32,000 nt of DNA from Candidatus Electronema aureum (GTDB taxonomy: Bacteria > Desulfobacterota > Desulfobulbia > Desulfobulbales > Desulfobulbaceae). This document shows, one piece after another, positions 1 to 31,413 of the stretch. Made by a program: the position numbers and the translations under genes. How positions within the stretch are numbered: position 1 is the first letter of the stretch; each line of letters opens with the position of its first letter. Location of the stretch: contig NQJD01000001.1 in assembly GCA_004284765.1 (NCBI GenBank), forward strand, positions 30,001-62,000. Direction: 5' to 3'. Below the pieces are notes generated by a model. It saw only the letters and a list, made by a program, of their open reading frames with translations. It did no database searches and was not told the origin of the DNA.

Positions 1-786
1 GTTCACCAAGAAATTGGCGGAGAAGGACATTTTGTTAGCGGAACAGGTAATTTTTATATAAATAAAACATTATCACCAGATAATTATTGGAAATTAATCT
101 CCAAGACACCGCACTGGTTGCTATTATTTGGATTGGCACCGTTTTTTTACAGATGGAACGAAGAAATATTTTTAGGAGAAATGAAACCAATGATGATTTT
201 TGAATTTATATTAATATCAGTAACTCTAATCCTTGGATTGCTTTGGTTACTATCATCGGAACACGAATTAAGTATTCTTGAACATCACTTAGGAAAATCC
301 CTCAAGCAAGGAAAATTTTCTCCTCGCATAATTTCGTATTCAATTCCGATATTCATGATAATACTGTCGGCATCTGCAAATCGTATATATATTTATGCAT
401 TTATTTACTGGATGTACATAAGTGTAGATGTCTTTGGGAGGAAGATTGCTGCAGATATTATTTACGATGCTGTTAAAGATGTTTGTGCTCATGGTGGATC
501 AAATAAGGCGATCGATAAGATATATTCGTATTATATAAAAAATTTTTTTGAGCTCAGAGGGTATATTACTGGCTCTGTATTTCTTGTAGTATTTCTTGTC
601 GGTATCTTGTCAGAAAATTTAATAGATAAATCAATTTTGCCACATATGTTTTTTCTGGAAAGAAAATTTGGTGTTATTGAGATTTTGTATCTAACAGCAA
701 CCAGCAGTATCGTTTTAAGCGAGATAGTAATTTGGTGTTGGAGAAAAGAAATGTATACTTATATATCAGAATATGATAATGCTTAA
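1..786 (+). CDS. multi-pass membrane protein of unknown function; reading frame is open to the window edge, so possibly 5'-truncated
   Basis: Frame +1 has no stop from nt 1 to the TAA at 784-786. The ORF-track start at 118 is TTG and the first ATG is at 181. The translation shows about five hydrophobic helices (MMIFEFILISVTLILGLLWLL, IISYSIPIFMIILSA, IYIYAFIYWMYISV, ITGSVFLVVFLVGIL, VIEILYLTATSSIVLSEIVIWCW). No family recognised. The DNA is AT-rich. Confidence 0.5.
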   Translation, partial: VHQEIGGEGHFVSGTGNFYINKTLSPDNYWKLISKTPHWLLLFGLAPFFYRWNEEIFLGEMKPMMIFEFILISVTLILGLLWLLSSEHELSILEHHLGKSLKQGKFSPRIISYSIPIFMIILSASANRIYIYAFIYWMYISVDVFGRKIAADIIYDAVKDVCAHGGSNKAIDKIYSYYIKNFFELRGYITGSVFLVVFLVGILSENLIDKSILPHMFFLERKFGVIEILYLTATSSIVLSEIVIWCWRKEMYTYISEYDNA

Positions 787-807
787 CGCAAATAAAATCT
801 GCCACCT

Positions 808-1416
808 TTGGCAAAAAAAGCAATCGTGTTAATTAAATCTGTTTACATATTTACCTATATTCTTTTTGTTGTATTTAGCTGTTTATTTAATTCATCTTGT
901 TTATCTCGAATTCCATCGAATGAGAGATGTAACTTTTCCTCTGTATTCTCAGAACCAGAACGTTGTTTTGGTGGAATAGGAGATCGATGCAAAGGTGTCC
1001 CTATTATCGCGCCTATGTATTTCAATGAATCTACCTGCACTGTTTCTGGTTATATGTCTGTTGGAAGCATACTGCATGACAAATGTTGTATAAGAACTTT
1101 GAATACCGGATATAAATGCGCATTTCCTGATGAAAAAACGAGTGAATGTCGCAAAGAATGGGATAAAGCCATTCGTGATTCGCTATGTTCTGTGTTTGGC
1201 GCAAAAAGGCAATGGGCAGTTACATTTGGCCCATACCAAATTGATAATGGAGGAGATTGCAGCACTGATTGTGAAACGCTGCCTTTTCGAGCACCATCAG
1301 GGGCTGCTGTTGATTTAGCGGATCAAATATACTGCAAGAATGGGTGTCTTAAATCAGCAAACGGCGAAGTCATATCCTATGAAGATGTTTGTGGGGATTA
1401 TTGTATTTGTCAATAA
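808..1416 (+). CDS. cysteine-rich secreted protein or lipoprotein candidate, unknown family
   Basis: 202-codon ORF with a TTG start (alternative GTG a few codons in). N-terminal basic then hydrophobic segment (KKAIVLIKSVYIFTYILFVVFSC) resembles a signal or lipoprotein leader. 18 Cys counted in the translation, including a CC pair and a terminal CGDYCICQ. No clear Shine-Dalgarno. AT-rich. Confidence 0.5.
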   Translation: MAKKAIVLIKSVYIFTYILFVVFSCLFNSSCLSRIPSNERCNFSSVFSEPERCFGGIGDRCKGVPIIAPMYFNESTCTVSGYMSVGSILHDKCCIRTLNTGYKCAFPDEKTSECRKEWDKAIRDSLCSVFGAKRQWAVTFGPYQIDNGGDCSTDCETLPFRAPSGAAVDLADQIYCKNGCLKSANGEVISYEDVCGDYCICQ

Positions 1417-1495
1417 TTTTTTTCTTTGCAAGAAACATAGCTAAACCCGCTGCCTTCTTTCATAGGTGAGCGTTTTTTCCTTGTCCTTAAATAGA

Positions 1496-1516
1496 CAAGG
1501 CAGCAGTTTCAGGAAC
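1496..1516. repeat. left copy of a perfect 21-nt direct repeat, CAAGGCAGCAGTTTCAGGAAC (att-like)
   Basis: The identical 21-mer recurs at 3042-3062 in the same orientation. The left copy overlaps the 3' arm of a small hairpin (ccttgtc-N8-gacaagg, 1479-1500) and lies where the AT-rich DNA ends. Confidence 0.85.
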
Positions 1517-1582
1517 AATTGACAACCTATCTACAGCAGGATACAATACACTGAGCTGCATTCCTGTTTTTTCGGAGTCCGG

Positions 1583-1661
1583 TAGGTTGGGGTGAGGCAC
1601 AAACCCCGACAATCATAAGGCGAGTCGGACATGTCGGGGTTCTCCGCCCACCCGCAACCTA
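1583..1661. repeat. long imperfect inverted repeat or structured element (candidate ncRNA, ssDNA hairpin or palindromic element)
   Basis: The left arm taggttggggtgaggcacaaaccccgac (1583-1610) pairs with the right arm gtcggggttctccgcccacccgcaaccta (1633-1661). This gives an outer ~12-bp stem, an internal loop, an inner 9-bp stem (aaccccgac/gtcggggtt) and a 22-nt apical loop. The loop contains a third gtcgg copy that allows an alternative pairing. Confidence 0.6.
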
Positions 1662-1687
1662 TGAGCTAACAAACAGCAGAGATTTTT

Positions 1688-1825
1688 CCTTCCAAAAGGT
1701 GTAGGTTTTGCCTATCAGAAGGCATCGGCTTTTCCTATCAAGAAACCTCCCTTCTATATATCAAAAAGGAGGTTTTTATATATCAAAAGGGAGTCTTTTT
1801 AGTACATAGAAGGGTAGTCTTTTGA
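1688..1825 (+). repeat. array of six degenerate ~21-24 bp tandem direct repeats (iteron- or operator-like), consensus about ctATCAaAAGGnnnnnnCTTTT
   Basis: Units: ccttccaaaaggtgtaggttttg / cctatcagaaggcatcggctttt / cctatcaagaaacctcccttc / tatatatcaaaaaggaggttttta / tatatcaaaagggagtcttttta / gtacatagaagggtagtcttttg. AAGG anchors sit at 1696, 1719, 1766, 1787 and 1810; the third unit is degenerate. Confidence 0.6.
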
Positions 1826-1850
1826 TTCGCAAAAAATCCGCATGTATCAA
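1822..1850 (+). promoter_or_regulatory. candidate sigma70 promoter for the 1907 ORF (TTGATT-N17-TATCAA)
   Basis: ttgatt at 1822-1827, a 17-nt spacer, tatcaa at 1845-1850. It directly abuts the last tandem repeat unit. AGGAGG at 1893-1898 sits 8 nt (1899-1906) before the ATG at 1907. Confidence 0.4.
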
Positions 1851-1906
1851 TGTATGTATTCATCTCTTTCCGTAAAGAATAATCATTTCTTATCAGGAGG
1901 TTCCCC

Positions 1907-2953
1907 ATGCCGGTTGGATACTATGTCAGAGAGAACAAACTCACCACGCCCCCTTCGTACAGCTGTCAGACAACTGCGGAAGACACACTTGGCTATGATG
2001 AAATCGCGGAACTTATTCATACGCTGAATCCGTCAATAACCGCTGCCCAGGTCAAGACGGTTTTGCAGAACTTCCAGCAGGTTGTCACGGAGCAGATTGC
2101 TGACGGCAAGTTCGTCAAATTAAAGAATTTCGTCTCCTTCATGCCGCGCCTCCAAGTGCGTTTGGACCTTCCGACCGATGACATTCCGCCTGATGCGGTG
2201 AAAGTGGCGGCCAAGATTCCGAGGCAGTTCAACCGGGCTGTCCAGAACATAGCTACCTATGAAAGGCTTGGTTATCCGTCCAAGGCCCCTGAAGTGGTCA
2301 TCGGGTATGAAACAAATACAAAGTACCCTCGGTTCATCAGGGAAGGATATCCGTTCCGCCTATCTGGGAAATTTCTTGGTTTTGATGTTGATGATGAGGA
2401 TTTAGGAATCTTCTTGGTTGATGCCAATGACAATGAGATCGAGCAGGACAAGATTGCTCTCAATGACCCGTCAAACGTGATCATCACTGCTGATTTCGGC
2501 GAAGCACCTGCTGCGTCTCCGAATGTCGAGAAGACCATCCTCTGCCGGAACAGATACACCTCGAACGGCACCATCCGGGAGGGATCCTACGAGCATGTGA
2601 GAAGTATGAATTTTATCGCGGCTGATCAGCTTGAGATGTTTGTTGCCGGTGCTGACGCGACAGGTCCTGTCCAGGCTGTGAAGCACAATGCGCCAGCTGA
2701 GGATTGCCGCGTTGAGGCGATATTGAAGCCTGACAATACGATCACATTGGCAATCGGCCCGTACATCGGTGAAATGGGGCCTCCGGTCACTGTGCCTCCC
2801 GAAGGCGGCAACATTGTCCTGCCCGGCCTTTCTGTTGATGTCAGACTGCATGTTGCCAATGCCGCAGCTTATGCTGCTCTGCGTAATTTTCTGCTGGCAC
2901 ATGGACGATATGTTCTGGAGGTCTGCAATATGGCTCAATTCGGCGGTGCCTGA
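1907..2953 (+). CDS. HU-like (HU_HIG-type) DNA-binding N-terminal domain fused to a DUF4469-like Ig-fold region, plus a ~120-aa unrecognised C-terminal extension
   Basis: Strong SD and ATG. The N-terminus (YYVRENKLTTPPSYSCQ...DEIAELI...ITAAQVKTVLQNFQQVVTEQIADGKFVKLKNF) matches my recollection of the Bacteroidota 'putative histone-like DNA-binding protein' family. The middle segment (PFRLSGKFLGFDVDDEDLGIFLVDANDNE...NDPSNVIITADF) resembles the DUF4469 pattern. This is recall only, not a search. Confidence 0.6.
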   Translation: MPVGYYVRENKLTTPPSYSCQTTAEDTLGYDEIAELIHTLNPSITAAQVKTVLQNFQQVVTEQIADGKFVKLKNFVSFMPRLQVRLDLPTDDIPPDAVKVAAKIPRQFNRAVQNIATYERLGYPSKAPEVVIGYETNTKYPRFIREGYPFRLSGKFLGFDVDDEDLGIFLVDANDNEIEQDKIALNDPSNVIITADFGEAPAASPNVEKTILCRNRYTSNGTIREGSYEHVRSMNFIAADQLEMFVAGADATGPVQAVKHNAPAEDCRVEAILKPDNTITLAIGPYIGEMGPPVTVPPEGGNIVLPGLSVDVRLHVANAAAYAALRNFLLAHGRYVLEVCNMAQFGGA

Positions 2954-3041
2954 TCTTGACGGCTTCTGGATTTGGCATGAGGCTGTTGCCTTTCACCCGA
3001 ACGAGATAGGCGGGATATTGGAAGAGATTGCCCGGAATGGG

Positions 3042-3062
3042 CAAGGCAGCAGTTTCAGGAAC
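3042..3062. repeat. right copy of the perfect 21-nt direct repeat, CAAGGCAGCAGTTTCAGGAAC (att-like)
   Basis: Identical to 1496-1516. It lies 88 nt after the stop of the 1907 ORF and 50 nt upstream of the favoured GTG start of the dgt-like gene. It would fall inside the coding sequence if the TTG at 3028 or the ATG at 3037 were the true start. Confidence 0.85.
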
Positions 3063-3111
3063 TCTTGCAGGATTTCCCTGTCATCCCTCCGATACGTGCT
3101 ACCTGAATACT

Positions 3112-4176
3112 GTGAACATTCGTCGCCAGTTAGAAGAACAGGAAAAACTTATCCTCTCACCTCATGCCTGTTTCAGTAGCAGATCGCGAGGGAGGTTGCG
3201 CGATGAGTCGCCCTGTGACCTCCGCACTGCCTTTCAACGCGACCGCGACCGCATCATTCACTCCAAAACCTTCCGCCGCCTCAAGCACAAGACTCAAGTT
3301 TTTTTAGCTCCAACCGGTGACCACTACCGAACCCGCTTAACCCATGTCCTTGAAGTTTCTCAAATTGCTCGCACCATTGCGGTCTGCCTACATTTGAACG
3401 AGTATCTCACTGAGGCCATTGCCCTTGGTCACGATCTCGGCCACACGCCTTTTGGCCATGCCGGTGAGTATAGCCTTAATCGCCTGCATCCGGGCGGCTT
3501 TCGACATTATATTCAGAGCCTACGGGTGGTTGATTTTCTCGAAAATCACGGTCAAGGGCTGAATTTGAGCTGGGAGGTACGGAACGGCATTGTCAAGCAT
3601 TCCAAGGGCTATCGGGACATTCTGCCTGACGACTCGCGGGAGCTGCCCGCAACGCTGGAGGGCCAAGCGGTGCGGGTAGCGGATATTATCGCCTACCTTA
3701 ATCACGACATGGATGACGCGCTGCGAGCCGAAATGATTAAAGAAAGCGATTTACCTATTCACTTGCGGCGGGTGGTGGGCGACCGGCCCGATCTTCGCAT
3801 TGCCGCCATGATGCGTGACCTGATCACAGAAAGCCTACGGGCCAACGAAGGTCGTCTCCGTCTCAGCCCGATGATGCAGGAGGTCATCTGCGGAATGCGC
3901 ACTTTCCTCTACGACAACGTTTATCGTAATCGGCTCGTACACAATGAGTTTGAAAAAGCACAAAATGTCATCCGCGAGCTGTACCTGTTTTTCTTGGAGC
4001 ATGAATTTCCAATCAGCCCAGAGCTGGTTTGCGCAAAACGTAAACCGCCCGTAGATGGCAAGGAAGAGAAACAGCTGCATCGATTAGTCTGCGATTTCAT
4101 TGCAGGAATGACAGACCGCTATGCCTTAGACCTATATAGTCAAATTTTCCTACCTAAACCTTGGTCGGTGATGTAG
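3112..4176 (+). CDS. dgt: dGTPase-like deoxyguanosinetriphosphate triphosphohydrolase family protein (HD domain)
   Basis: Motifs FQRDRDRIIHSKTFRRLKHKTQVF, RLTHVLEVSQIAR, HDLGHTPFGH and the C-terminal DFIAGMTDRYA are typical of the family. The start is placed at the in-frame GTG at 3112 (VNIRRQLEEQEKLILSP...), matching usual family N-termini. The ORF-track start at 3028 (TTG) and the ATG at 3037 remain possible. Confidence 0.85.
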   Translation: MNIRRQLEEQEKLILSPHACFSSRSRGRLRDESPCDLRTAFQRDRDRIIHSKTFRRLKHKTQVFLAPTGDHYRTRLTHVLEVSQIARTIAVCLHLNEYLTEAIALGHDLGHTPFGHAGEYSLNRLHPGGFRHYIQSLRVVDFLENHGQGLNLSWEVRNGIVKHSKGYRDILPDDSRELPATLEGQAVRVADIIAYLNHDMDDALRAEMIKESDLPIHLRRVVGDRPDLRIAAMMRDLITESLRANEGRLRLSPMMQEVICGMRTFLYDNVYRNRLVHNEFEKAQNVIRELYLFFLEHEFPISPELVCAKRKPPVDGKEEKQLHRLVCDFIAGMTDRYALDLYSQIFLPKPWSVM

Positions 4177-4241
4177 CTTATGCATAAAAAATTGCATTCG
4201 TTGAGAACAGTTCTATCTAAAACGCCACCGCTTGTACAATC

Positions 4242-4862
4242 TCAGTTTCCTGGAGGCACACTTTGTTCAGCTGGACTAACAGGCTTATTTTCCTGAATCT
4301 GGGCCTGCTGCTGCATTTCTTCTGCCGCAGGAGGAACTACTTTTTCCAGTTCAGGCGCGGGAGATAGCTGCACAGTCGGGGTCTGCTCTCGTTGTAGGTA
4401 GGAAAAAGGGTTCCAGCCGGTGTAAAGGAAAAATCCGGCAACGAATAGCCCAATGAGCATCAGCATCATAACTGCCAAAGTGACTGCCGAAACATGGGCA
4501 GGCTCGGCCAGCTGTTTGGCCGACATCCCACTGCCTTTACTGCCTTTTTGCCCGTCTATTTGCTGGTGTTGTTCACGTTCAACTATGAATCTTCTTGCCA
4601 CCTGATTCCCGTCTATGCCAAGAAGATTCGCGTAAATCGCTACTTGGCCACGAATGAATGTATTAGCCGGTAAGTCGGTATAATTCTCATGTTCAATGGC
4701 GACCAGATTGGAAGCGGAAATATTGGTCTCTTTCGCAGCATCTCGGATGCTGATTCCTTTTTCCTTGCGCAGCTGCCGCAGCATCTCCCCCACGCTTACT
4801 ACCTGATGCTCTCCGCTGACAGCTGCCTGTTTGTCCGTGCCACTCTGTTCTTGTCTGTTCAT
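4242..4862 (-). CDS. RodZ-like helix-turn-helix membrane protein (HTH, single TM helix, Pro/Gln-rich tail)
   Basis: HTH segment LRQLRKEKGISIRDAAKETNISASNLVAIEHENYTDLPANTFIRGQVAIYANLLG. One TM helix, VTLAVMMLMLIGLFVAGFFLY. Low-complexity C-terminus. Confidence 0.65.
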   Translation of the reverse strand: MNRQEQSGTDKQAAVSGEHQVVSVGEMLRQLRKEKGISIRDAAKETNISASNLVAIEHENYTDLPANTFIRGQVAIYANLLGIDGNQVARRFIVEREQHQQIDGQKGSKGSGMSAKQLAEPAHVSAVTLAVMMLMLIGLFVAGFFLYTGWNPFSYLQREQTPTVQLSPAPELEKVVPPAAEEMQQQAQIQENKPVSPAEQSVPPGN

Positions 4863-4910
4863 GAATCTCTGCTGATGGTTGTATTATTGGCAGTTTCTCC
4901 AGCTACGCCG

Positions 4911-5858
4911 TCATAAAATCCTGATGTATGCTCCACTGCGGATTTCTTCAATCCATGTTTTATAGCGCGTCTCTAACTCCTGCTTGTGCAGAATTTCGTG
5001 AATTTCATTCTTAACAGACTCATAAGGAGCTTTAGTCGCGTCTTTGCCAGAAGAAAGTAATTTAAAAATCATCAAGCCTTCTGGAGTGTCAATGACCGGG
5101 CTGATGCCACCAGACTGAAGCGAAGTCACTGCTTCCCGCATGTACGATGCCATCTCGTCAGCCTTAAACATACCAATATCACCGCCGTCCGCAGCAGAGG
5201 GGAGTTCAGAATGCTTCCGCGCCAATTCTTGAAAATCCTCTCCAGCAAGAGCACGATTGCGTACTGCTTCGGCTTTTTCTCTGGCTGCCTGCTTCGCCGC
5301 GCCAAAGGCAAAACCGATCTGAAGAAGATGATAGCCCGTGGCTTTGGCGGTATATTTCTGCTCGTAATATTCTTTAATTTTTTCTTCCGGGACAACTACT
5401 TTGGAACGCACCGCATAACCGACCAACCTTGAACTGAGCATTTGCTCCTTGAGATTGTCACGATACTGCTGCTCGTTCAGGCCCATTTTTTCTAATTCAG
5501 CCTTGAATTCGTTCTCGCCGATCCCCCCGCGCTCCAATATTTGCTGCCGTGCCTGCTCAATATCTGCATCAGTCACGTTAATCTTCATCTGCTCGGCTTG
5601 CTGAAGGAGAAGATGCTTTTCGATCAACCGGTCGATTACGCCCTTTCGGGCTTGGTGCATGGCTTCAGCCCGCTGACTGAACGGAACTTCCGCCTTGATC
5701 CGCTCAAAAACCGCCTTGCCTGCCTCCTCGACTTCGGACACAGTGATGACATCTTGATTGACCACAGCGGCGCAAGAGTCAATCACCTCGCCCGCCTCGG
5801 CCAAAGAGACAAGCAGAACGATGAACACGGCCAAACTGCTGCATACTTTTTTAATCAT
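4911..5858 (-). CDS. periplasmic peptidyl-prolyl cis-trans isomerase, SurA/PpiC (parvulin) family
   Basis: Signal peptide MIKKVCSSLAVFIVLLVSLAEA. SurA-N-like helical region. Parvulin-like segment YHLLQIGF...FQELARKHSELPSAADGGDIGMFKADEM...GGISPVIDTPEGLMIFKLL. Confidence 0.8.
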   Translation of the reverse strand: MIKKVCSSLAVFIVLLVSLAEAGEVIDSCAAVVNQDVITVSEVEEAGKAVFERIKAEVPFSQRAEAMHQARKGVIDRLIEKHLLLQQAEQMKINVTDADIEQARQQILERGGIGENEFKAELEKMGLNEQQYRDNLKEQMLSSRLVGYAVRSKVVVPEEKIKEYYEQKYTAKATGYHLLQIGFAFGAAKQAAREKAEAVRNRALAGEDFQELARKHSELPSAADGGDIGMFKADEMASYMREAVTSLQSGGISPVIDTPEGLMIFKLLSSGKDATKAPYESVKNEIHEILHKQELETRYKTWIEEIRSGAYIRIL

Positions 5859-5936
5859 ATCCCACCCTGTGGTCTGTAGAACACAAAGTCAGAAAGCGAA
5901 CACGTGGCCCGCCTTCTGATTCCCAGCGACGTGGTC

Positions 5937-8030
5937 TTATGCTTTGTTGCTCTCTTCCAGCACGGCCTTGCGGCTCAGACGAATGCGGCCTCGGCTGTCA
6001 ACATCCAGCACTTTGACTTTGATCCGATCTCCTTCTTTGAGAACATCCTCAACCTTATTCACCCGCTGCACATCTAACTCGGAGATATGCACCATGCCGT
6101 CCGTGCCCGGCAGAATTTCAACAAAGGCACCGAAATCCTTGATTGTCTTGACTACACCATCATAAATTCTGCCGATCTCCGGCATAGCAGTCATTCCCTC
6201 AATACGAGCAACCAAAGCAGCAGCAGACTCATTGGTTTTGGAGAAAATTTTTATCGTGCCATCATCTTCTACGTCGATCTTAGCATCAAACTCGGCGGTC
6301 AACTCGCGGATGATTTTGCCGCCCGGCCCGATAATGTCGCGGATTTTATCTTGGCTGATTTTGATAGTGACATAACGCGGCGCATGATCTGAGATTTCTG
6401 TGCGCGGAATGCCAAGTGCCTCTTCCATTTTGCCGAGAATATGAAGGCGGCCTTCCTTGGCTTGGGCTAAGGCATTGCCCATGATCTCGCGGCTTACCCC
6501 GTCGATCTTAATATCCATTTGCAACGAAGCGATACCTGAAGACGTGCCAACCACTTTGAAATCCATATCGCCGAGATGATCCTCGTCGCCAAGAATGTCG
6601 GTGAGTACGACAATTTTATCGCCTTCTTTAATCAAGCCCATCGCCACGCCAGAAACCGGAGCTTTGATCGGCACGCCTGCATCCATCAGAGCTAAACTCC
6701 CGCCGCAGACGGTGGCCATTGATGACGAACCGTTCGACTCCAGTACTTCCGAAGTCAGCCGCATGGTGTAAGGAAAATTGACAGAATCGGGTAGCACTGC
6801 TTCAATACCTCGGCGGGCCAAGGTACCGTGGCCGATGTCGCGGCGACTGGGGCCGCGCAGGGCACGCACTTCGCCGACGCAGAAGGGCTGGAAGTTGTAA
6901 TGCAGCATAAAACGGCGGTACACATCACCGGTCAAGCCTTCGATATGCAGCTCGTCACGCTCAGAACCCAGCGTGGCCACGACCAGAGCTTGGGTTTCGC
7001 CGCGCGTGAAAAGAGCTGAACCGTGCGCCTTGGGCAACACGCCCACCTCGCATTGAATGGGCCGCACTTGATCAAAACTGCGTCCGTCAAGGCGGATACC
7101 TTGATTGACGATCCGATCGCGCATGACCTTTTTTCGATATGCGTCGAGCAGCTCCGCAACCTCGTCTGCCTTTTTATACAATTCTGGGTTACTATTAGCC
7201 AGCACTTCGTCTTTAAGTGCCTCGTAGCGACGACTCCGCTCCATTTTATCGGCTGTAGCAACCACGGTTTCCATGCCTGCGGCAGCTAATTCTTCTACTT
7301 GAGCCTTCAGAGCTTCGTTGACCTGCGGCGGCGTAACGCTCCGTTTGGGCTTGCCAACTTCTGCCCGCAGCGCATTCTGCACAGCGATAAGCGGCTGAAT
7401 CTCGCGATGAACAAAGAAAATGGCATCCAGCACCACTTCTTCGCTTAATTCAGCCGTGCGACCCTCCACCATGATTACAGCGGTCTCGGAACATGCCACG
7501 ACCAAATTCATAGCCGATTGCGCTAACTGGCTTTTGCTCGGATTGAGGACATACGCCCCATCAATATAACCAACTCTGGCCGCAGCAACCGGCCCGCTCC
7601 ACGGAATGTCAGACAAAGCCAAGGCCGCTGATGCGCCGTTCATAGCCAGAATGTCGGGATCAATCTCCGCTTCTGCTGAAAAAACGGTGGCAATCAGCTG
7701 GGTTTCTGCCCGATAACCTTTAGGAAAAAGCGGTCGCAGCGGACGATCAATCAATCGGCTGGTCAAAATTTCTTTTTCAGAAGGCCGTCCAATTTCCCGG
7801 CGGAAATAGTTACCCGGAATTCGGCCAGCAGCATAAAGTCGCTCCTGATATTCTATAGTCAAGGGCATAAAGCCCATGTCTTCTTTCTCTTTTTTTTCTG
7901 CTACCACCGTGACCAGCACCATCGTCTCGCCGCAGGAAATCACTACCGCGCCGTCTGCTTGCTTGGCCATTTTGCCGGTCTCAAACACCATGCTACGCCC
8001 ACCGATCTCTACCTCTGTTCTCTTGTACAT
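5937..8030 (-). CDS. pnp: polyribonucleotide nucleotidyltransferase (PNPase)
   Basis: 697 aa covering two RNase PH domains, KH and S1. The N-terminus MVFETGKMAKQADGAVV, the FMLHYNFQPFCVGE motif and the C-terminal S1 segment (GRIYDGVVKTIKDFGAFVEILPGTDGMVHISE) are all recognisable. Located downstream of rpsO. Confidence 0.97.
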   Translation of the reverse strand: MYKRTEVEIGGRSMVFETGKMAKQADGAVVISCGETMVLVTVVAEKKEKEDMGFMPLTIEYQERLYAAGRIPGNYFRREIGRPSEKEILTSRLIDRPLRPLFPKGYRAETQLIATVFSAEAEIDPDILAMNGASAALALSDIPWSGPVAAARVGYIDGAYVLNPSKSQLAQSAMNLVVACSETAVIMVEGRTAELSEEVVLDAIFFVHREIQPLIAVQNALRAEVGKPKRSVTPPQVNEALKAQVEELAAAGMETVVATADKMERSRRYEALKDEVLANSNPELYKKADEVAELLDAYRKKVMRDRIVNQGIRLDGRSFDQVRPIQCEVGVLPKAHGSALFTRGETQALVVATLGSERDELHIEGLTGDVYRRFMLHYNFQPFCVGEVRALRGPSRRDIGHGTLARRGIEAVLPDSVNFPYTMRLTSEVLESNGSSSMATVCGGSLALMDAGVPIKAPVSGVAMGLIKEGDKIVVLTDILGDEDHLGDMDFKVVGTSSGIASLQMDIKIDGVSREIMGNALAQAKEGRLHILGKMEEALGIPRTEISDHAPRYVTIKISQDKIRDIIGPGGKIIRELTAEFDAKIDVEDDGTIKIFSKTNESAAALVARIEGMTAMPEIGRIYDGVVKTIKDFGAFVEILPGTDGMVHISELDVQRVNKVEDVLKEGDRIKVKVLDVDSRGRIRLSRKAVLEESNKA

Positions 8031-8349
8031 GCAAACTCCTTTGCGTTCAGCTATCCCGGACTGATGGCCGGGTCTATTCTTCTGTGTTATTTGGTCGAGT
8101 TATTTTATTTTTTGGCATGTTCCGCCGCATTGCATACTTAAAAGAAAATGTACTTGGAAGGGAACACAGCGGCAGGATTGTCTTCCTGCTGACAGCAGGA
8201 AAATGTTTGAGGCGATGAGAAAAAATTTGCACAATGGTTCCTTGGGCAGCAATAACTTTATCCTGTCGGCGCAGCAGGCGACGCCGGAAGAAAATCAGCA
8301 GAAAAAGCCGAGGAAAAACCATATCGTTTTTTCAATCATTTGAGAAACC

Positions 8350-8379
8350 TGTCTCTATCTGTGCGCACAGATAGAGACA
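8350..8379 (-). terminator. perfect 30-nt palindrome just after rpsO; candidate rpsO terminator/attenuator or processing hairpin in the pnp leader
   Basis: tgtctctatctgtgc|gcacagatagagaca, located 24 nt downstream of the rpsO stop on the minus strand. It is followed by GGTTTCTC, which is only weakly U-rich, so read-through into pnp is likely. Confidence 0.5.
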
Positions 8380-8402
8380 AGGAACGCTACTGTTTGTTAC
8401 TG

Positions 8403-8672
8403 CTACTTCCTGATGCCCAGCGTCTGAATGATTGCCCGGTACCTGTTGATATCTTTCTTTCGCAGATACTGGAGCAGGCTACGCCGCTGACCAACCAATT
8501 TCAGCAGACCACGGCGAGAATGATGATCCTTGGCATTCGTCTGAAAATGAGCGGTGAGATAGCTGATTCGGTCGGAAATCAGAGCGATTTGCACTTCCGG
8601 CGAACCGGTATCGCCCTCATGGGCCGCGAATTTCTCAATGATCTCTTTTTTCTTTACTGTGCTTTGTGCCAT
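8403..8672 (-). CDS. rpsO: 30S ribosomal protein S15
   Basis: 89 aa starting [48 protein letters not shown] sits 6 nt upstream of the ATG at 8672. The longer ORF-track version (to 8831) is an upstream extension. Confidence 0.95.
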
Positions 8673-8827
8673 AATCGGCCTCCAAAAAAGGTGTTGTCCT
8701 TCTGCTGTCGGCAAAGCCTGCGCTTCCTCAGCCTCGCCGGAGTCTGGATACAATTGCCTACTGATCCGCACCCGAGGAATGAGATGCGGGAGACAATCCG
8801 CTGTTTCCGCCCGCTGCGGAACAGTCT

Positions 8828-9580
8828 TCACTTCAATGTTTCTTCTTTTGTCGCCGCCAACGCCTGCTCAACGGTCAACATCCCTGCTAAGAGCGCGGTT
8901 TGTGTAATACCTTCGGAGAAGAAAAGCAATCCACCGTCAAACGCCTCTTCCACCGCAAAACCACCGCTGCGGGTACGCCGTAAATCAGTCAGATGCGCCC
9001 CGCAGCCAATTTTACGGCCTATATCTGCGGCAAGTACCCTGATATATGTACCCCGGCTACATGAAACTGTGAACGACAGCCGAGCTGTATTCGCATCATA
9101 CCCGTTCAGATCGAGGCTGTAAATTTCAATCGGCTTGGCCGCCTTTTCAATCATGATACCTTGACGGGCATAATGATAGAGCGGCTTGCCTTGGTGCTTG
9201 GCTGCTGAATAGGCGGGCGGAGCTTGTAACTGCGGGCCAACAAACTCTGGCAGCAGCGCGACGATATCCTCTGAAATCAGCTCTGGCACCGGCCTAACTG
9301 CTGTCACACGGCCTTCAGGGTCAAGGGTTTCTGTTTCTTGGCCTAACTGAAGGACGGCCTGATAGGTCTTACGGCCTGTCATAAACGCATCAATGTGCTT
9401 GGTGGCTTCCCGCCCGGCGCACAGAATCAGCAAGCCGCTGGCAAAAGGGTCTAACGTGCCTGCATGTCCAACTTTTTTGATCTCCAGCAGTCGCCGTAGT
9501 TTCTGTACTACAGCAAAGGAGGTAACTCCGACCGGTTTATCAATTAGAAAAACCCCGACGGCGGACGCAGCTAAACTCAC
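8828..9580 (-). CDS. truB: tRNA pseudouridine(55) synthase
   Basis: Motifs [17 protein letters not shown] and [16 protein letters not shown] (catalytic Asp). Conserved position between rbfA/nrnA-like and rpsO. Confidence 0.9.
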
Positions 9581-29457: not shown

Positions 29458-31413
29458 TTAATCCCCTCCTACAGGGACTACGGGTAAGGCACCGGCATCC
29501 TCTGGCTTGGGCAAGCGGTCGGCGAAATATTTTTCCAGCACAGCCTTGGCGATAGGCGCGGCTGCTGAACCGCCGTGCAGACCATGCTCAACCAGCACCG
29601 TTACCGCAATTTCTGGATTTTCTGCGGGTGCGAAGCAGGTGAACCAAGCATGATCTCGGTATTTATAAGGAATATTTTCTTCTTTAAGATGTTTGTATTG
29701 TTTGATCCGCACGACTTGAGCGGTACCGGTCTTGCCTGCCACAGTGATGCTGTTGAGTCGCGCCTTGGTTGAGGTCCCACGACGACCGTTTACCGCCTCA
29801 ATCAAGCCCTCTTTGAGGAGATTGAGCGCACGCTCTTGGCCGGTGAAATGATCAAGCTCCGTCGCCTGAAAGCGTTCAACTATATGACCGTCAGGATCGC
29901 GCACTGTTTCAATAATACTTGGTTTATACAGCCTGCCGCCGTTGGCCACCGCAGCAGTCATCATAGCCAGTTGGAGGGGTGTAACTAAGTTGAAACCTTG
30001 GCCGATAGCCACGGACAACGTTTCGCCGTCCTGCCAAGGCTTACCGTACCTTTTCAGCTTCCATTCTGAGGTAGGAATCAAGCCGCTCTTCTCATGCTCA
30101 ATCTCGACTCCAGTTTTTTTGCCCAAACCAAGGTGACTGGCATAATTTGCCAACCGATTTACTCCCAGCCGTTGTCCTAAGTGATAAAAATAAACATCGC
30201 AGGATTCAGAAAGGGCGCGTTTGAGATTCACCGTGCCGTGTCCGCCTTTGTATTTCCAACAACGATAGCTGCGGTTGCCGAAACGATAGGAACCCGGACA
30301 ATAGACCGTGCTGTCTGGAGTGATAATGCCTTCTGCCAAACCAGCGAGTGCCGTCACGATTTTGTAAGTAGAGGCAGGTGGATACTGGCCCTGCACGGTT
30401 TTGTTGATCAGCGGATGATGGGGGTTATCGAGCATCTCTTTCCAATTTTTACTGGAAATACCGCCGAGAAATTTGCTCAAATCCAGCACTGGCGAGCTGG
30501 CAACGAGGAGCAAGCGGCCCGTATTTACCTCCACCGCCACCACTGCCCCGGACTTATTCTCGTCCATCATGATTTTTTCTGCCGCCTGTTGGAGATCAAC
30601 ATCTAAAGTAAGCTGGATATCGCTGCCCGGCAGTGGCTCTAAGCCCTTGAGATTGCGCTGCTCAAAGCCGAGCGAATTTACCTCCATGTATTCGCGGCCC
30701 TTTTCTCCGCGCAGGTCTTTTTCCCGTAACCGCTCTAAGCCCATCTTACCCGTCATATCGCCGGGCCGATAACTATCGGTTTCAGCATCTGTTAAATCTT
30801 CTTTGCTGATTTCTGCAAGATAACCGATCATGTGAGAGGCTAAGTTGCCGTAATGATAGACCCGCTGCGGCACTACCTCAATTTTGATACCCGGCATGTC
30901 CATCCGGTTATTCTCAATATAGGCCACTTTGTCCCATTCTATATTCTCGGCCAGACGAATCGGAATGTGACCGGGCGTGCCTGCCATCTTGCGGATGCGG
31001 GCTAAGAGATCGGAGGGGTCAACTGCTAAAATTGCGGCAACTTTTTTGATCAGTTCTTCATCGATGCGGTTTTTCTCCCGCACCCAAACCACGTTAAAGG
31101 AAGGTTTGTTGGTGACAATCTCTCGGCCTTTTCGGTCTAAAATATTGCCACGGGGAGCGGCGATATCAACTGTGCGGACTCGGTTATTTTGGGCAAGTTT
31201 GGCATACTGATCGCCTTGAAGTATTTGAAGGTACCAGAGTCGGGCTGCTAAGGTGGCAAAAAAGAAAATCAGCACTGCTGAGGAATACATAGCCCGACGG
31301 CGGTATAAGTCCAGCTCGCCTTGGTTGATGTGGCTGATAACGGTTTTGTCGTCGCCGCTGCGGGCGGCATCTTCCTCTGTCCCGTGCGTCCTTCTCCGGT
31401 TGATTTTCCTCAT
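29458..31413 (-). CDS. mrdA: penicillin-binding protein 2 (elongasome transpeptidase)
   Basis: 651 aa. N-terminal TM anchor, LWYLQILQGDQY...RGNILDRKG, STYK active-site motif (PASTYKIV) and KTGTAQ. 4-nt overlap with mreD. Confidence 0.93.
   Translation of the reverse strand: MRKINRRRTHGTEEDAARSGDDKTVISHINQGELDLYRRRAMYSSAVLIFFFATLAARLWYLQILQGDQYAKLAQNNRVRTVDIAAPRGNILDRKGREIVTNKPSFNVVWVREKNRIDEELIKKVAAILAVDPSDLLARIRKMAGTPGHIPIRLAENIEWDKVAYIENNRMDMPGIKIEVVPQRVYHYGNLASHMIGYLAEISKEDLTDAETDSYRPGDMTGKMGLERLREKDLRGEKGREYMEVNSLGFEQRNLKGLEPLPGSDIQLTLDVDLQQAAEKIMMDENKSGAVVAVEVNTGRLLLVASSPVLDLSKFLGGISSKNWKEMLDNPHHPLINKTVQGQYPPASTYKIVTALAGLAEGIITPDSTVYCPGSYRFGNRSYRCWKYKGGHGTVNLKRALSESCDVYFYHLGQRLGVNRLANYASHLGLGKKTGVEIEHEKSGLIPTSEWKLKRYGKPWQDGETLSVAIGQGFNLVTPLQLAMMTAAVANGGRLYKPSIIETVRDPDGHIVERFQATELDHFTGQERALNLLKEGLIEAVNGRRGTSTKARLNSITVAGKTGTAQVVRIKQYKHLKEENIPYKYRDHAWFTCFAPAENPEIAVTVLVEHGLHGGSAAAPIAKAVLEKYFADRLPKPEDAGALPVVPVGGD

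Follow-up and report, generated by a model that had tools for sequence, protein, structure and literature searches.

A single-gene HU-HIG/DUF4469 unit between 21-nt direct repeats upstream of dgt in Candidatus Electronema aureum, a possible footprint of local insertion or rearrangement

Results

A conserved unit that stops short of both repeats

The subject of this work is a 1.5-kb interval of Candidatus (Ca.) Electronema aureum, a cable bacterium of the Desulfobulbaceae, which lies between two copies of a perfect 21-nt direct repeat, CAAGGCAGCAGTTTCAGGAAC, next to dgt, a gene for a dGTP triphosphohydrolase-like protein. It was analysed within a window of 32,000 nt, the whole stretch of DNA under study (positions 30,001 to 62,000 of contig NQJD01000001.1), and all positions given without a locus name are those of the window. 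An earlier sequence-only reading had taken the interval for a compact self-contained module bounded by attachment (att) sites. We found that the interval holds a conserved single-gene unit, encoding an HU-HIG/DUF4469 protein, and that this unit, as delimited by some 30 loci, stops at ~1578 and ~2965, 62 and 77 nt inside the repeats; the repeats are therefore not its boundaries and the module is not self-contained. Our preferred interpretation, which we hold tentatively and at slightly less than even confidence, is that the repeats belong to the footprint of a local insertion or rearrangement and do not bound a self-contained att element.

The family comparison covered ~30 loci that were fetched or scanned (designated by L numbers), 24 of them from metagenomes and none from viral contigs. 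When aligned, they share a hairpin, the linker motif AAACAGCA, a palindromic array, the element TTGATT-17-TATCAA, a ribosome-binding site and the open reading frame (ORF), in a unit whose left end is the hairpin base (~1578-1582) and whose right end falls 12 nt past the stop codon. The two nearest relatives of the gene, L113 and L120 (95.6 and 88.9% nucleotide identity), both diverge from the window at 2966, that is 76 nt before the right 21-mer. Neighbouring genes vary among most loci, and include a CRISPR (clustered regularly interspaced short palindromic repeats) array with TonB-dependent receptors, Roc-COR with cytochrome b, a BrnT toxin and YcaO. Searched with up to five mismatches, the 21-mer was in no other HU-HIG family locus, and its exact sequence had no occurrence in 241 million metagenome contigs or in a viral collection. 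Comparison of the two flanks in 17 loci gave a flanking repeat above the chance length of 8-12 nt in the window (21 nt) and in L005 (16 nt) only; the L005 16-mer belongs to a longer promoter block, near-copies of which occur in L099, L105 and L106.

The 21-nt repeat

As the earlier reading had stated, CAAGGCAGCAGTTTCAGGAAC occurs twice in the same orientation, both exact copies being on the + strand (Table 1), and this pair is the sole long perfect direct repeat of the 32 kb. No third copy was found anywhere in the window, even with up to three mismatches allowed. The number of such matches expected by chance is ~1e-4 (~5e8 same-strand position pairs multiplied by 4^-21), and none of 100 shuffled sequences contained any match. 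The similarity grows to 27 nt with two mismatches (AATRGR plus the 21-mer) and to 32 nt at 88%, there being slight extra resemblance on either side of both copies (AATRGR before, NNTTG after); each copy is followed by 2 nt and then by TTG, which at the left copy is the start of the -35 hexamer. The weaker continuation described previously (..TT..GCAGGAT) is at chance level, since its local alignment was equalled by 200 of 500 shuffles and the repeat-anchored one by 387 of 2000.

Because 21 is a common k-mer size of assemblers, the possibility of an assembly artefact was checked. The right junction is spanned at 100% identity by the four contigs L001-L004, which derive from four independent runs (k = 31), and the left junction by L121, a contig of a relative. 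The repeat is real and non-random, and it is no assembly artefact.

Several further resemblances were considered and rejected. An inverted third copy at 1441-1456 (13 of 16 matches) was discarded, as the fold of 1417-1530 is no better than that of shuffles (z = -1.3) and 3-mismatch matches of this kind occur at chance rate over 1.4 Mb. When reverse-complemented, the 21-mer resembles the motif that follows the family terminator (GAACCTGCCTTTG) no more than by chance, its score of 14-15 comparing with a window-wide maximum of 24, and a sigma-54 promoter or a dif-like site within the 21-mer was rejected by inspection.

The left flank is shared with a relative

Contig L121, from SRR23867506, is colinear with window positions 1-1532 at 96.5% identity and stops at the equivalent of 1532. 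The shared stretch includes the left 21-mer, in which two nucleotides are substituted, and the -35 of the promoter downstream of it. Because this colinearity continues through 1532, the left 21-mer and the promoter lie within DNA that is contiguous with the AT-rich islet at the left end of the window. The left copy had been placed exactly where the AT-rich DNA ends; this holds approximately but not to the nucleotide, as the G+C content (0.28-0.33 before ~1000) climbs gradually to 0.39-0.45 over 900-1950, and as the breakpoint in comparison with a relative, at 1470/1471, is 25 nt to the left of the 21-mer. The segment just before this breakpoint (1355-1470) is upstream of the HU-HIG gene in the window and downstream of it in L113.

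The islet itself (window 1-1470; L121 1-1718; G+C content 0.28-0.41) encodes two proteins, one of membrane type (288 aa) and one secreted, of 196 aa and with ~20 cysteines. Neither had a match in Pfam, PHROG or PADLOC, and for the Cys-rich protein no more than five close homologues are on record. The first ORF of the window extends past the window edge. At L113 430-666, ~125 nt of unrelated, ORF-like sequence come after the HU-HIG gene; they are joined to the final 60 nt of the Cys-rich gene, behind which lies queA. The arrangement resembles the scar of a rearrangement in which the same end of the islet took part.

The right flank lacks the family terminator

Of the 22 relative loci listed, 9 have an intrinsic terminator, CCGGAGCnGAAGCTCCGG, 3′ of the HU-HIG gene. 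This terminator is missing from the window, where a scan of 2954-3111 detected no terminator and no clear promoter. The segment between the unit and dgt (2966-3111) was also considered as a gene fragment, and this was rejected, its peptide having no homologue.

The dgt product is 87-91% identical to Ca. Electronema dGTPases. As orthologous dGTPases of 350-357 aa begin with V/M-NIRRQLEE, and as the longer N-termini called for some of them are mutually unrelated, the true start of dgt is probably GTG 3112 (354 aa), the called ATG 3037 (379 aa) probably being wrong; no obvious Shine-Dalgarno sequence precedes GTG 3112. The right 21-mer, which had been assigned to the start or upstream region of this gene, is thus 50 nt upstream of the conserved start, and it would be intragenic only with the non-conserved ATG 3037. 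For the same reasons, namely the unrelated N-terminal extensions of the orthologues and the conserved GTG, the right copy was rejected as conserved dgt coding sequence.

In three Electronema-type relatives with a dgt of 87-91% identity (L091, L092 and L093), the neighbours of dgt differ on both sides from those in window 3112-6000. This indicates very poor local synteny in cable bacteria. A genome scan for dgt gave no cable-bacterial locus closer than 74% among the matches listed.

The leader and its palindromic array

The features that the sequence-only reading had listed between the two copies, namely a promoter, a hairpin, a repeat array and one DNA-binding-type ORF, were all found, and their positions are collected in Table 1 with those of the flanking segments.

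Table 1. Positions of the features in and around the interval between the 21-nt repeats (window coordinates).
Feature	Position	Strand	Basis and remarks
3′ end of the Cys-rich gene plus 54 nt	1355-1470	+	94.8% identical to L113 551-666; homology ends at 1470/1471
Left junction segment, with left 21-mer and promoter; outside the conserved unit	1471-1577	+	In no other family locus; common to L121 to at least 1532
Left 21-mer copy	1496-1516	+	Exact match; 2 nt ahead of the -35 hexamer; L121 orthologue with 2 mismatches
Strong sigma-70-type promoter, TTGACA-17-TACAAT	1519-1547	+	11 of 12 consensus positions; predicted function
Long imperfect hairpin, its base being the left end of the unit	1582-1663	+	Fold; at least 10 loci keep the sequence ahead of their HU-HIG genes; little covariation
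Linker motif AAACAGCA, between hairpin and array	1671-1678	+	In most family leaders
About six or seven 22-24-nt units, skeleton (T)CAAAA-N8-10-TTTTGA, degenerate in the window	1686-1835	+	Tandem repeat finder, period 22
Possible unit-internal promoter, TTGATT-17-TATCAA	1822-1850	+	Aligned leaders, most family copies; putative, below the promoter-scan threshold
HU-HIG/DUF4469 (Ig-like) gene, 348 aa	1907-2953	+	Pfam matches; ribosome-binding site AGGAGG at 1895-1900
Last 12 nt common to relatives; family terminator absent after it	2954-2965	+	Alignment with relatives
Right junction segment, with right 21-mer; locus-specific	2966-3111	+	No match in any fetched locus
Right 21-mer copy	3042-3062	+	Exact match; 50 nt upstream of the conserved dgt start; spanned by L001-L004 at 100% identity
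dgt (dGTP triphosphohydrolase-like) gene, conserved start GTG 3112	3112-4176	+	NF002327, 506 bits (cut-off 393)

The leader folds well beyond shuffled sequences (z = -4.1), and a search of leader and hairpin against Rfam gave nothing at gathering score, with noise alone at E up to 5. Besides the window, the hairpin was recorded in L095-L103, L108, L109, L114 and L120, with a solo copy at L099 1351-1423. Its variants carry a loop insertion of ~85 nt (L097, L102, L109) or consist of the right arm alone (L101, L114), and its start often comes directly after the stop codon of the gene before it.

Tandem 22-nt units were located in the window at 1755-1823 by a tandem repeat finder. In relatives the arrays have a period of 23 nt, and in five of the eight relatives tested perfect palindromes of 16-18 bp, for example CAAAAGGGTACCCTTTTG and TCAAAATGcagcCATTTTGA, were in significant excess over shuffles, with varying centres. 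The palindromic units are probably bound by a DNA-binding protein that acts as a dimer, and this may be the HU-HIG protein itself.

The same-strain short-read contigs L001-L004 all break inside the leader (at window positions 1563, 1820 and 1826), which suggests that stretches of the hairpin and array have additional copies in this genome or sample, as would be the case with more HU-HIG paralogues.

The promoter block of L005 is found in Electrothrix in the form ...CTGTATCYRTCTGTTACGTTAA...TTGACA-18-TATATA, at L005 9540-9680 and 11385-11450, at L105/L106 4700-4830 and 6385-6450, and at L099 1500-1620. A 16-nt piece of it is on both sides of the HU-HIG gene in L005, with near-identical copies in L105/L106, and in L099 the block precedes a G+C-rich leader. 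In L005 (Ca. Electrothrix aestuarii, CP159373.1), a CRISPR array of ~24 units with the repeat GTCTTAATACCCTCTTCATAGGGTAGGTGTTACGAC occupies 7890-9470 and ends ~130 nt before the HU-HIG promoter block.

The HU-HIG protein

By Pfam thresholds the predicted protein is a bona fide HU-HIG/DUF4469 member, with scores of 31.4 bits for PF18291 (cut-off 26.2), 30.3 for PF14848 (cut-off 30) and 26.8 for PF14734 (cut-off 22.6), the domains named being HU-HIG, HU-DNA_bdg and DUF4469. It is 79-85% identical to Ca. Electrothrix proteins, which together with the dgt identities marks the host as a cable bacterium, and its homologues were gathered in 36 clusters. The match to the sequence of 4FMR, the solved member (an HU dimer whose DNA cleft is filled by the Ig domain), is weak (E = 0.21), a remote similarity only, and the AlphaFold model, with a predicted local distance difference test (pLDDT) score of 44.5, was too poor for a structure search. 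There was no PADLOC match and the PHROG match was a generic DNA-binding one; with no viral loci in the family either, a phage or defence origin was rejected.

Two unusual homologues were recorded. In Ca. Electrothrix sp. GW3-4 (L006, 9995-10020), the reading frame of the HU-HIG homologue meets a stop after 8 codons and the called protein restarts at a later ATG (317 aa), which may reflect a pseudogene or a sequencing error. In a 272-aa metagenomic protein (P0036), domains of primase/helicase type (D5_N and DUF5906) occur together with a stretch that matches part of the HU-HIG protein at 81% identity.

Discussion

A tentative model

If the interval is the footprint of a local event, it would represent one copy of a relocating single-gene HU-HIG/DUF4469 unit of cable bacteria, which a lineage-specific insertion or rearrangement would have set, without its terminator, between the AT-rich islet and dgt. 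Such an event would have left the patchwork junction segments 1471-1577 and 2966-3111, and would have duplicated 21 nt of the pre-existing flank, one copy on each side, for which a Campbell-type single crossover of a circular intermediate, a template switch during repair and the action of a recombinase are candidate routes. In its present position, the promoter of the flank would drive a structured leader of ~350 nt and the HU-HIG gene, from a transcription start predicted near 1554. With the family terminator gone and no evident promoter ahead of dgt, transcription would probably read through into this gene, the expression of which the event would thereby have rewired.

Several points weigh against this interpretation. 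A perfect 21-nt core with unrelated flanks fits att cores as well; no donor copy, empty site or intermediate was seen, so that the direction and the mechanism of the event are conjectural. Differing contexts alone do not prove that the unit is mobile, because the loss of synteny is general in these genomes. L121 ends at 1532, before the unit, which it may or may not carry, and both the read-through into dgt and an autoregulation by the HU-HIG protein are things we infer from the sequence.

Should the footprint interpretation be right, the interval would be an ordinary trace of genome plasticity in cable bacteria, and of low priority as a new mobile element. The event would have removed the terminator of the unit and put dgt behind a strong foreign promoter, from which an altered dgt expression is predicted in this strain, and the hairpin and palindromic array would be a concrete candidate for the nucleic-acid partner of the enigmatic HU-HIG family.

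Alternative explanations

The alternative that survives best, although we consider it unlikely, is that the 21-mers are the attL and attR sites of a small integrase-less cis-mobilizable element, integrated upstream of dgt and mobilized by a recombinase encoded elsewhere. A perfect direct repeat with dissimilar flanks around one accessory gene beside a housekeeping gene is what such an element would show, and the slight extra flank similarity (AATRGR, NNTTG) and the presence of the gene family at many different loci agree with it. No recombinase or transposase was found in the interval, where the absence of an integrase had already been noted and was confirmed by the Pfam scan, nor among the window ORFs scanned with Pfam (a few had no hit or were left unscanned), nor among the annotations of the matching contig; the other window ORFs examined are housekeeping genes, for example rimP, PNPase, dsr-type reductases, FtsW and PBP2. 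Moreover, the family unit ends inside the repeats, neither the 21-mer nor the junction segments are in any of the ~30 related loci, the nearest relatives diverge before the right copy is reached, and no third copy was found. What stands of the att interpretation is a non-random repeat around a recombinase-less gene, adjoining dgt in this lineage only; what does not stand is that the 21-mer bounds a recurring unit.

An empty site was not found via dgt in L091-L093, where the DNA upstream of dgt is without the 21-mer and cannot be aligned, this search being powerless because dgt lacks conserved neighbours in the three relatives. The same-strain contigs L001-L004 are all in the occupied state, without a graph break at the repeat, and because they span the right junction without a branch, no abundant empty-site variant was present in those samples; this also speaks against an element that is excised. 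Were the interval excised, the circle junction would read CCGGAATGGG-21mer-AATTGACAACC (in longer form GCCCGGAATGGG-CAAGGCAGCAGTTTCAGGAAC-AATTGACAACCTAT) and the repaired, empty site TTAAATAGA-21mer-TCTTGCAGG (in longer form CCTTAAATAGA-CAAGGCAGCAGTTTCAGGAAC-TCTTGCAGGATTT). If the att sites were live, the interval would be among the smallest recombinase-less integrative modules known.

Somewhat less likely again is a cis-regulatory role of the 21-mer, as an operator, an UP-like element or an activator site lying just ahead of two transcription starts; it would co-regulate the HU-HIG gene and dgt, and its copies would have been kept identical by selection and not by a mobility event. The TTG found 2 nt after both copies, the left one being part of the -35 of a promoter with 11 of 12 consensus positions, is suggestive of this, as is the membership of the L005 flanking repeat in a promoter block with near-copies at three other loci. 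No convincing promoter follows the right copy, however, and the 21-mer is without dyad or internal repeat symmetry. Its L121 orthologue is no better conserved than the surroundings, with 2 differences in 21 nt compared to 54 in 1532 overall (3.5%), which argues against any extra constraint, and the 21-mer is not upstream of dgt in the three Electronema-type relatives.

There is little likelihood, in our judgement, that the HU-HIG unit is an undescribed non-autonomous mobile cassette, in which the 5′ hairpin would be a recombination site for a trans-acting enzyme and insertion beside host promoters would leave target duplications of 16-21 nt. The observation that speaks for it is the presence of flanking duplications at two independent loci, of 21 nt in the window and of 16 nt in L005 (near-identical in L105/L106).

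It is very improbable that the interval is the remnant of an integrated small replicon, with the array as iterons and the protein as an initiator or partition protein. Tandem 22-23-nt units beside a DNA-binding-type gene recall such a replicon, but domain searches detected no Rep, ParB or primase domain in the HU-HIG/DUF4469 protein, the array units are palindromic, and the leader-plus-gene unit sits in ordinary chromosomal contexts of closed genomes and was not found in viral contigs.

Least credible of all is that the repeat arose in assembly, through a k = 21 overlap or a graph loop, or that the match is fortuitous: 21 nt is indeed a common de Bruijn k-mer size, but independent k = 31 contigs of four runs span the right junction at full identity, the contig of a relative spans the left one, and both the chance expectation and the shuffles argue against coincidence.

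Outside the interval, a near-perfect palindrome of 64 nt, with two 32-nt arms and no spacer, was noted at 8333-8396, just upstream of the PNPase gene (5937-8030, minus strand).

Comparison with known systems

Integrase-less att-flanked islets, cis-mobilizable elements that result from tandem accretion at an att site, resemble the interval in having a short perfect direct repeat around recombinase-less accessory DNA beside a housekeeping gene. They differ in that the repeats of the window are off the ends of the conserved unit and occur in no related locus, and in that no adjacent integrase-bearing element, third copy or empty site was seen for the window interval. With 1.5 kb, the interval is also far below the size that cis-mobilizable elements are known to have. 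Modules that depend on Xer, such as integrative mobile elements exploiting Xer (IMEX) and the pdif modules of Acinetobacter plasmids, are compact, comprise one or two genes, have no recombinase of their own and are bounded by short specific sites; in contrast, the 21-mer is by inspection without the 11-6-11 dyad expected of a 28-bp dif-like site, and the sites of the window are in direct orientation and unique to the locus.

Among the known systems, the interval works least like an integron cassette. Both have one ORF with a long imperfect hairpin, and the unit, like a cassette, is found in differing neighbourhoods; however, the hairpin of the window is 5′ of the ORF, whereas attC would be expected 3′ of it, and its arms are TAGGTTG...CAACCTA instead of the RYYYAAC...GTTRRRY cores. 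There is no intI in the window and no cassette array, and the unit has its own leader and terminator. An insertion sequence, a miniature inverted-repeat transposable element (MITE) or another transposon is not matched either, there being no inverted repeat between the ends 1517... and ...3041 and no transposase; transposon target duplications measure 2-14 bp, for which the 21 nt duplicated here are too long. From an iteron replicon the interval is distinguished by the lack of a Rep gene and by units that are palindromic and not directly repeated iterons.

The gene itself compares best with the HU-HIG clade of the HU/IHF superfamily, whose members have an Ig-like domain at the C-terminus (PF18291 plus DUF4469; 4FMR), and which, in the passages retrieved from the paper on it, is described as a set of stand-alone, rapidly diversifying Bacteroidetes genes that occur in variable contexts and without conserved operon partners (Burroughs et al., 2017; PMC5499826). 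The window gene passes the Pfam cut-offs and, in line with these passages, stands alone, diverges fast and is found in variable contexts. It differs from that description in coming from Desulfobulbaceae cable bacteria and not from Bacteroidetes, in its remoteness from 4FMR, and in the conserved leader of hairpin, AAACAGCA and palindromic 23-nt units, which is unmentioned in the retrieved passages of that paper. The HU-HIG/DUF4469 family, described there as a radiation within the Bacteroidetes, is thus also present in Desulfobulbaceae cable bacteria, as a compact unit with a hairpin and a palindromic 23-nt array.

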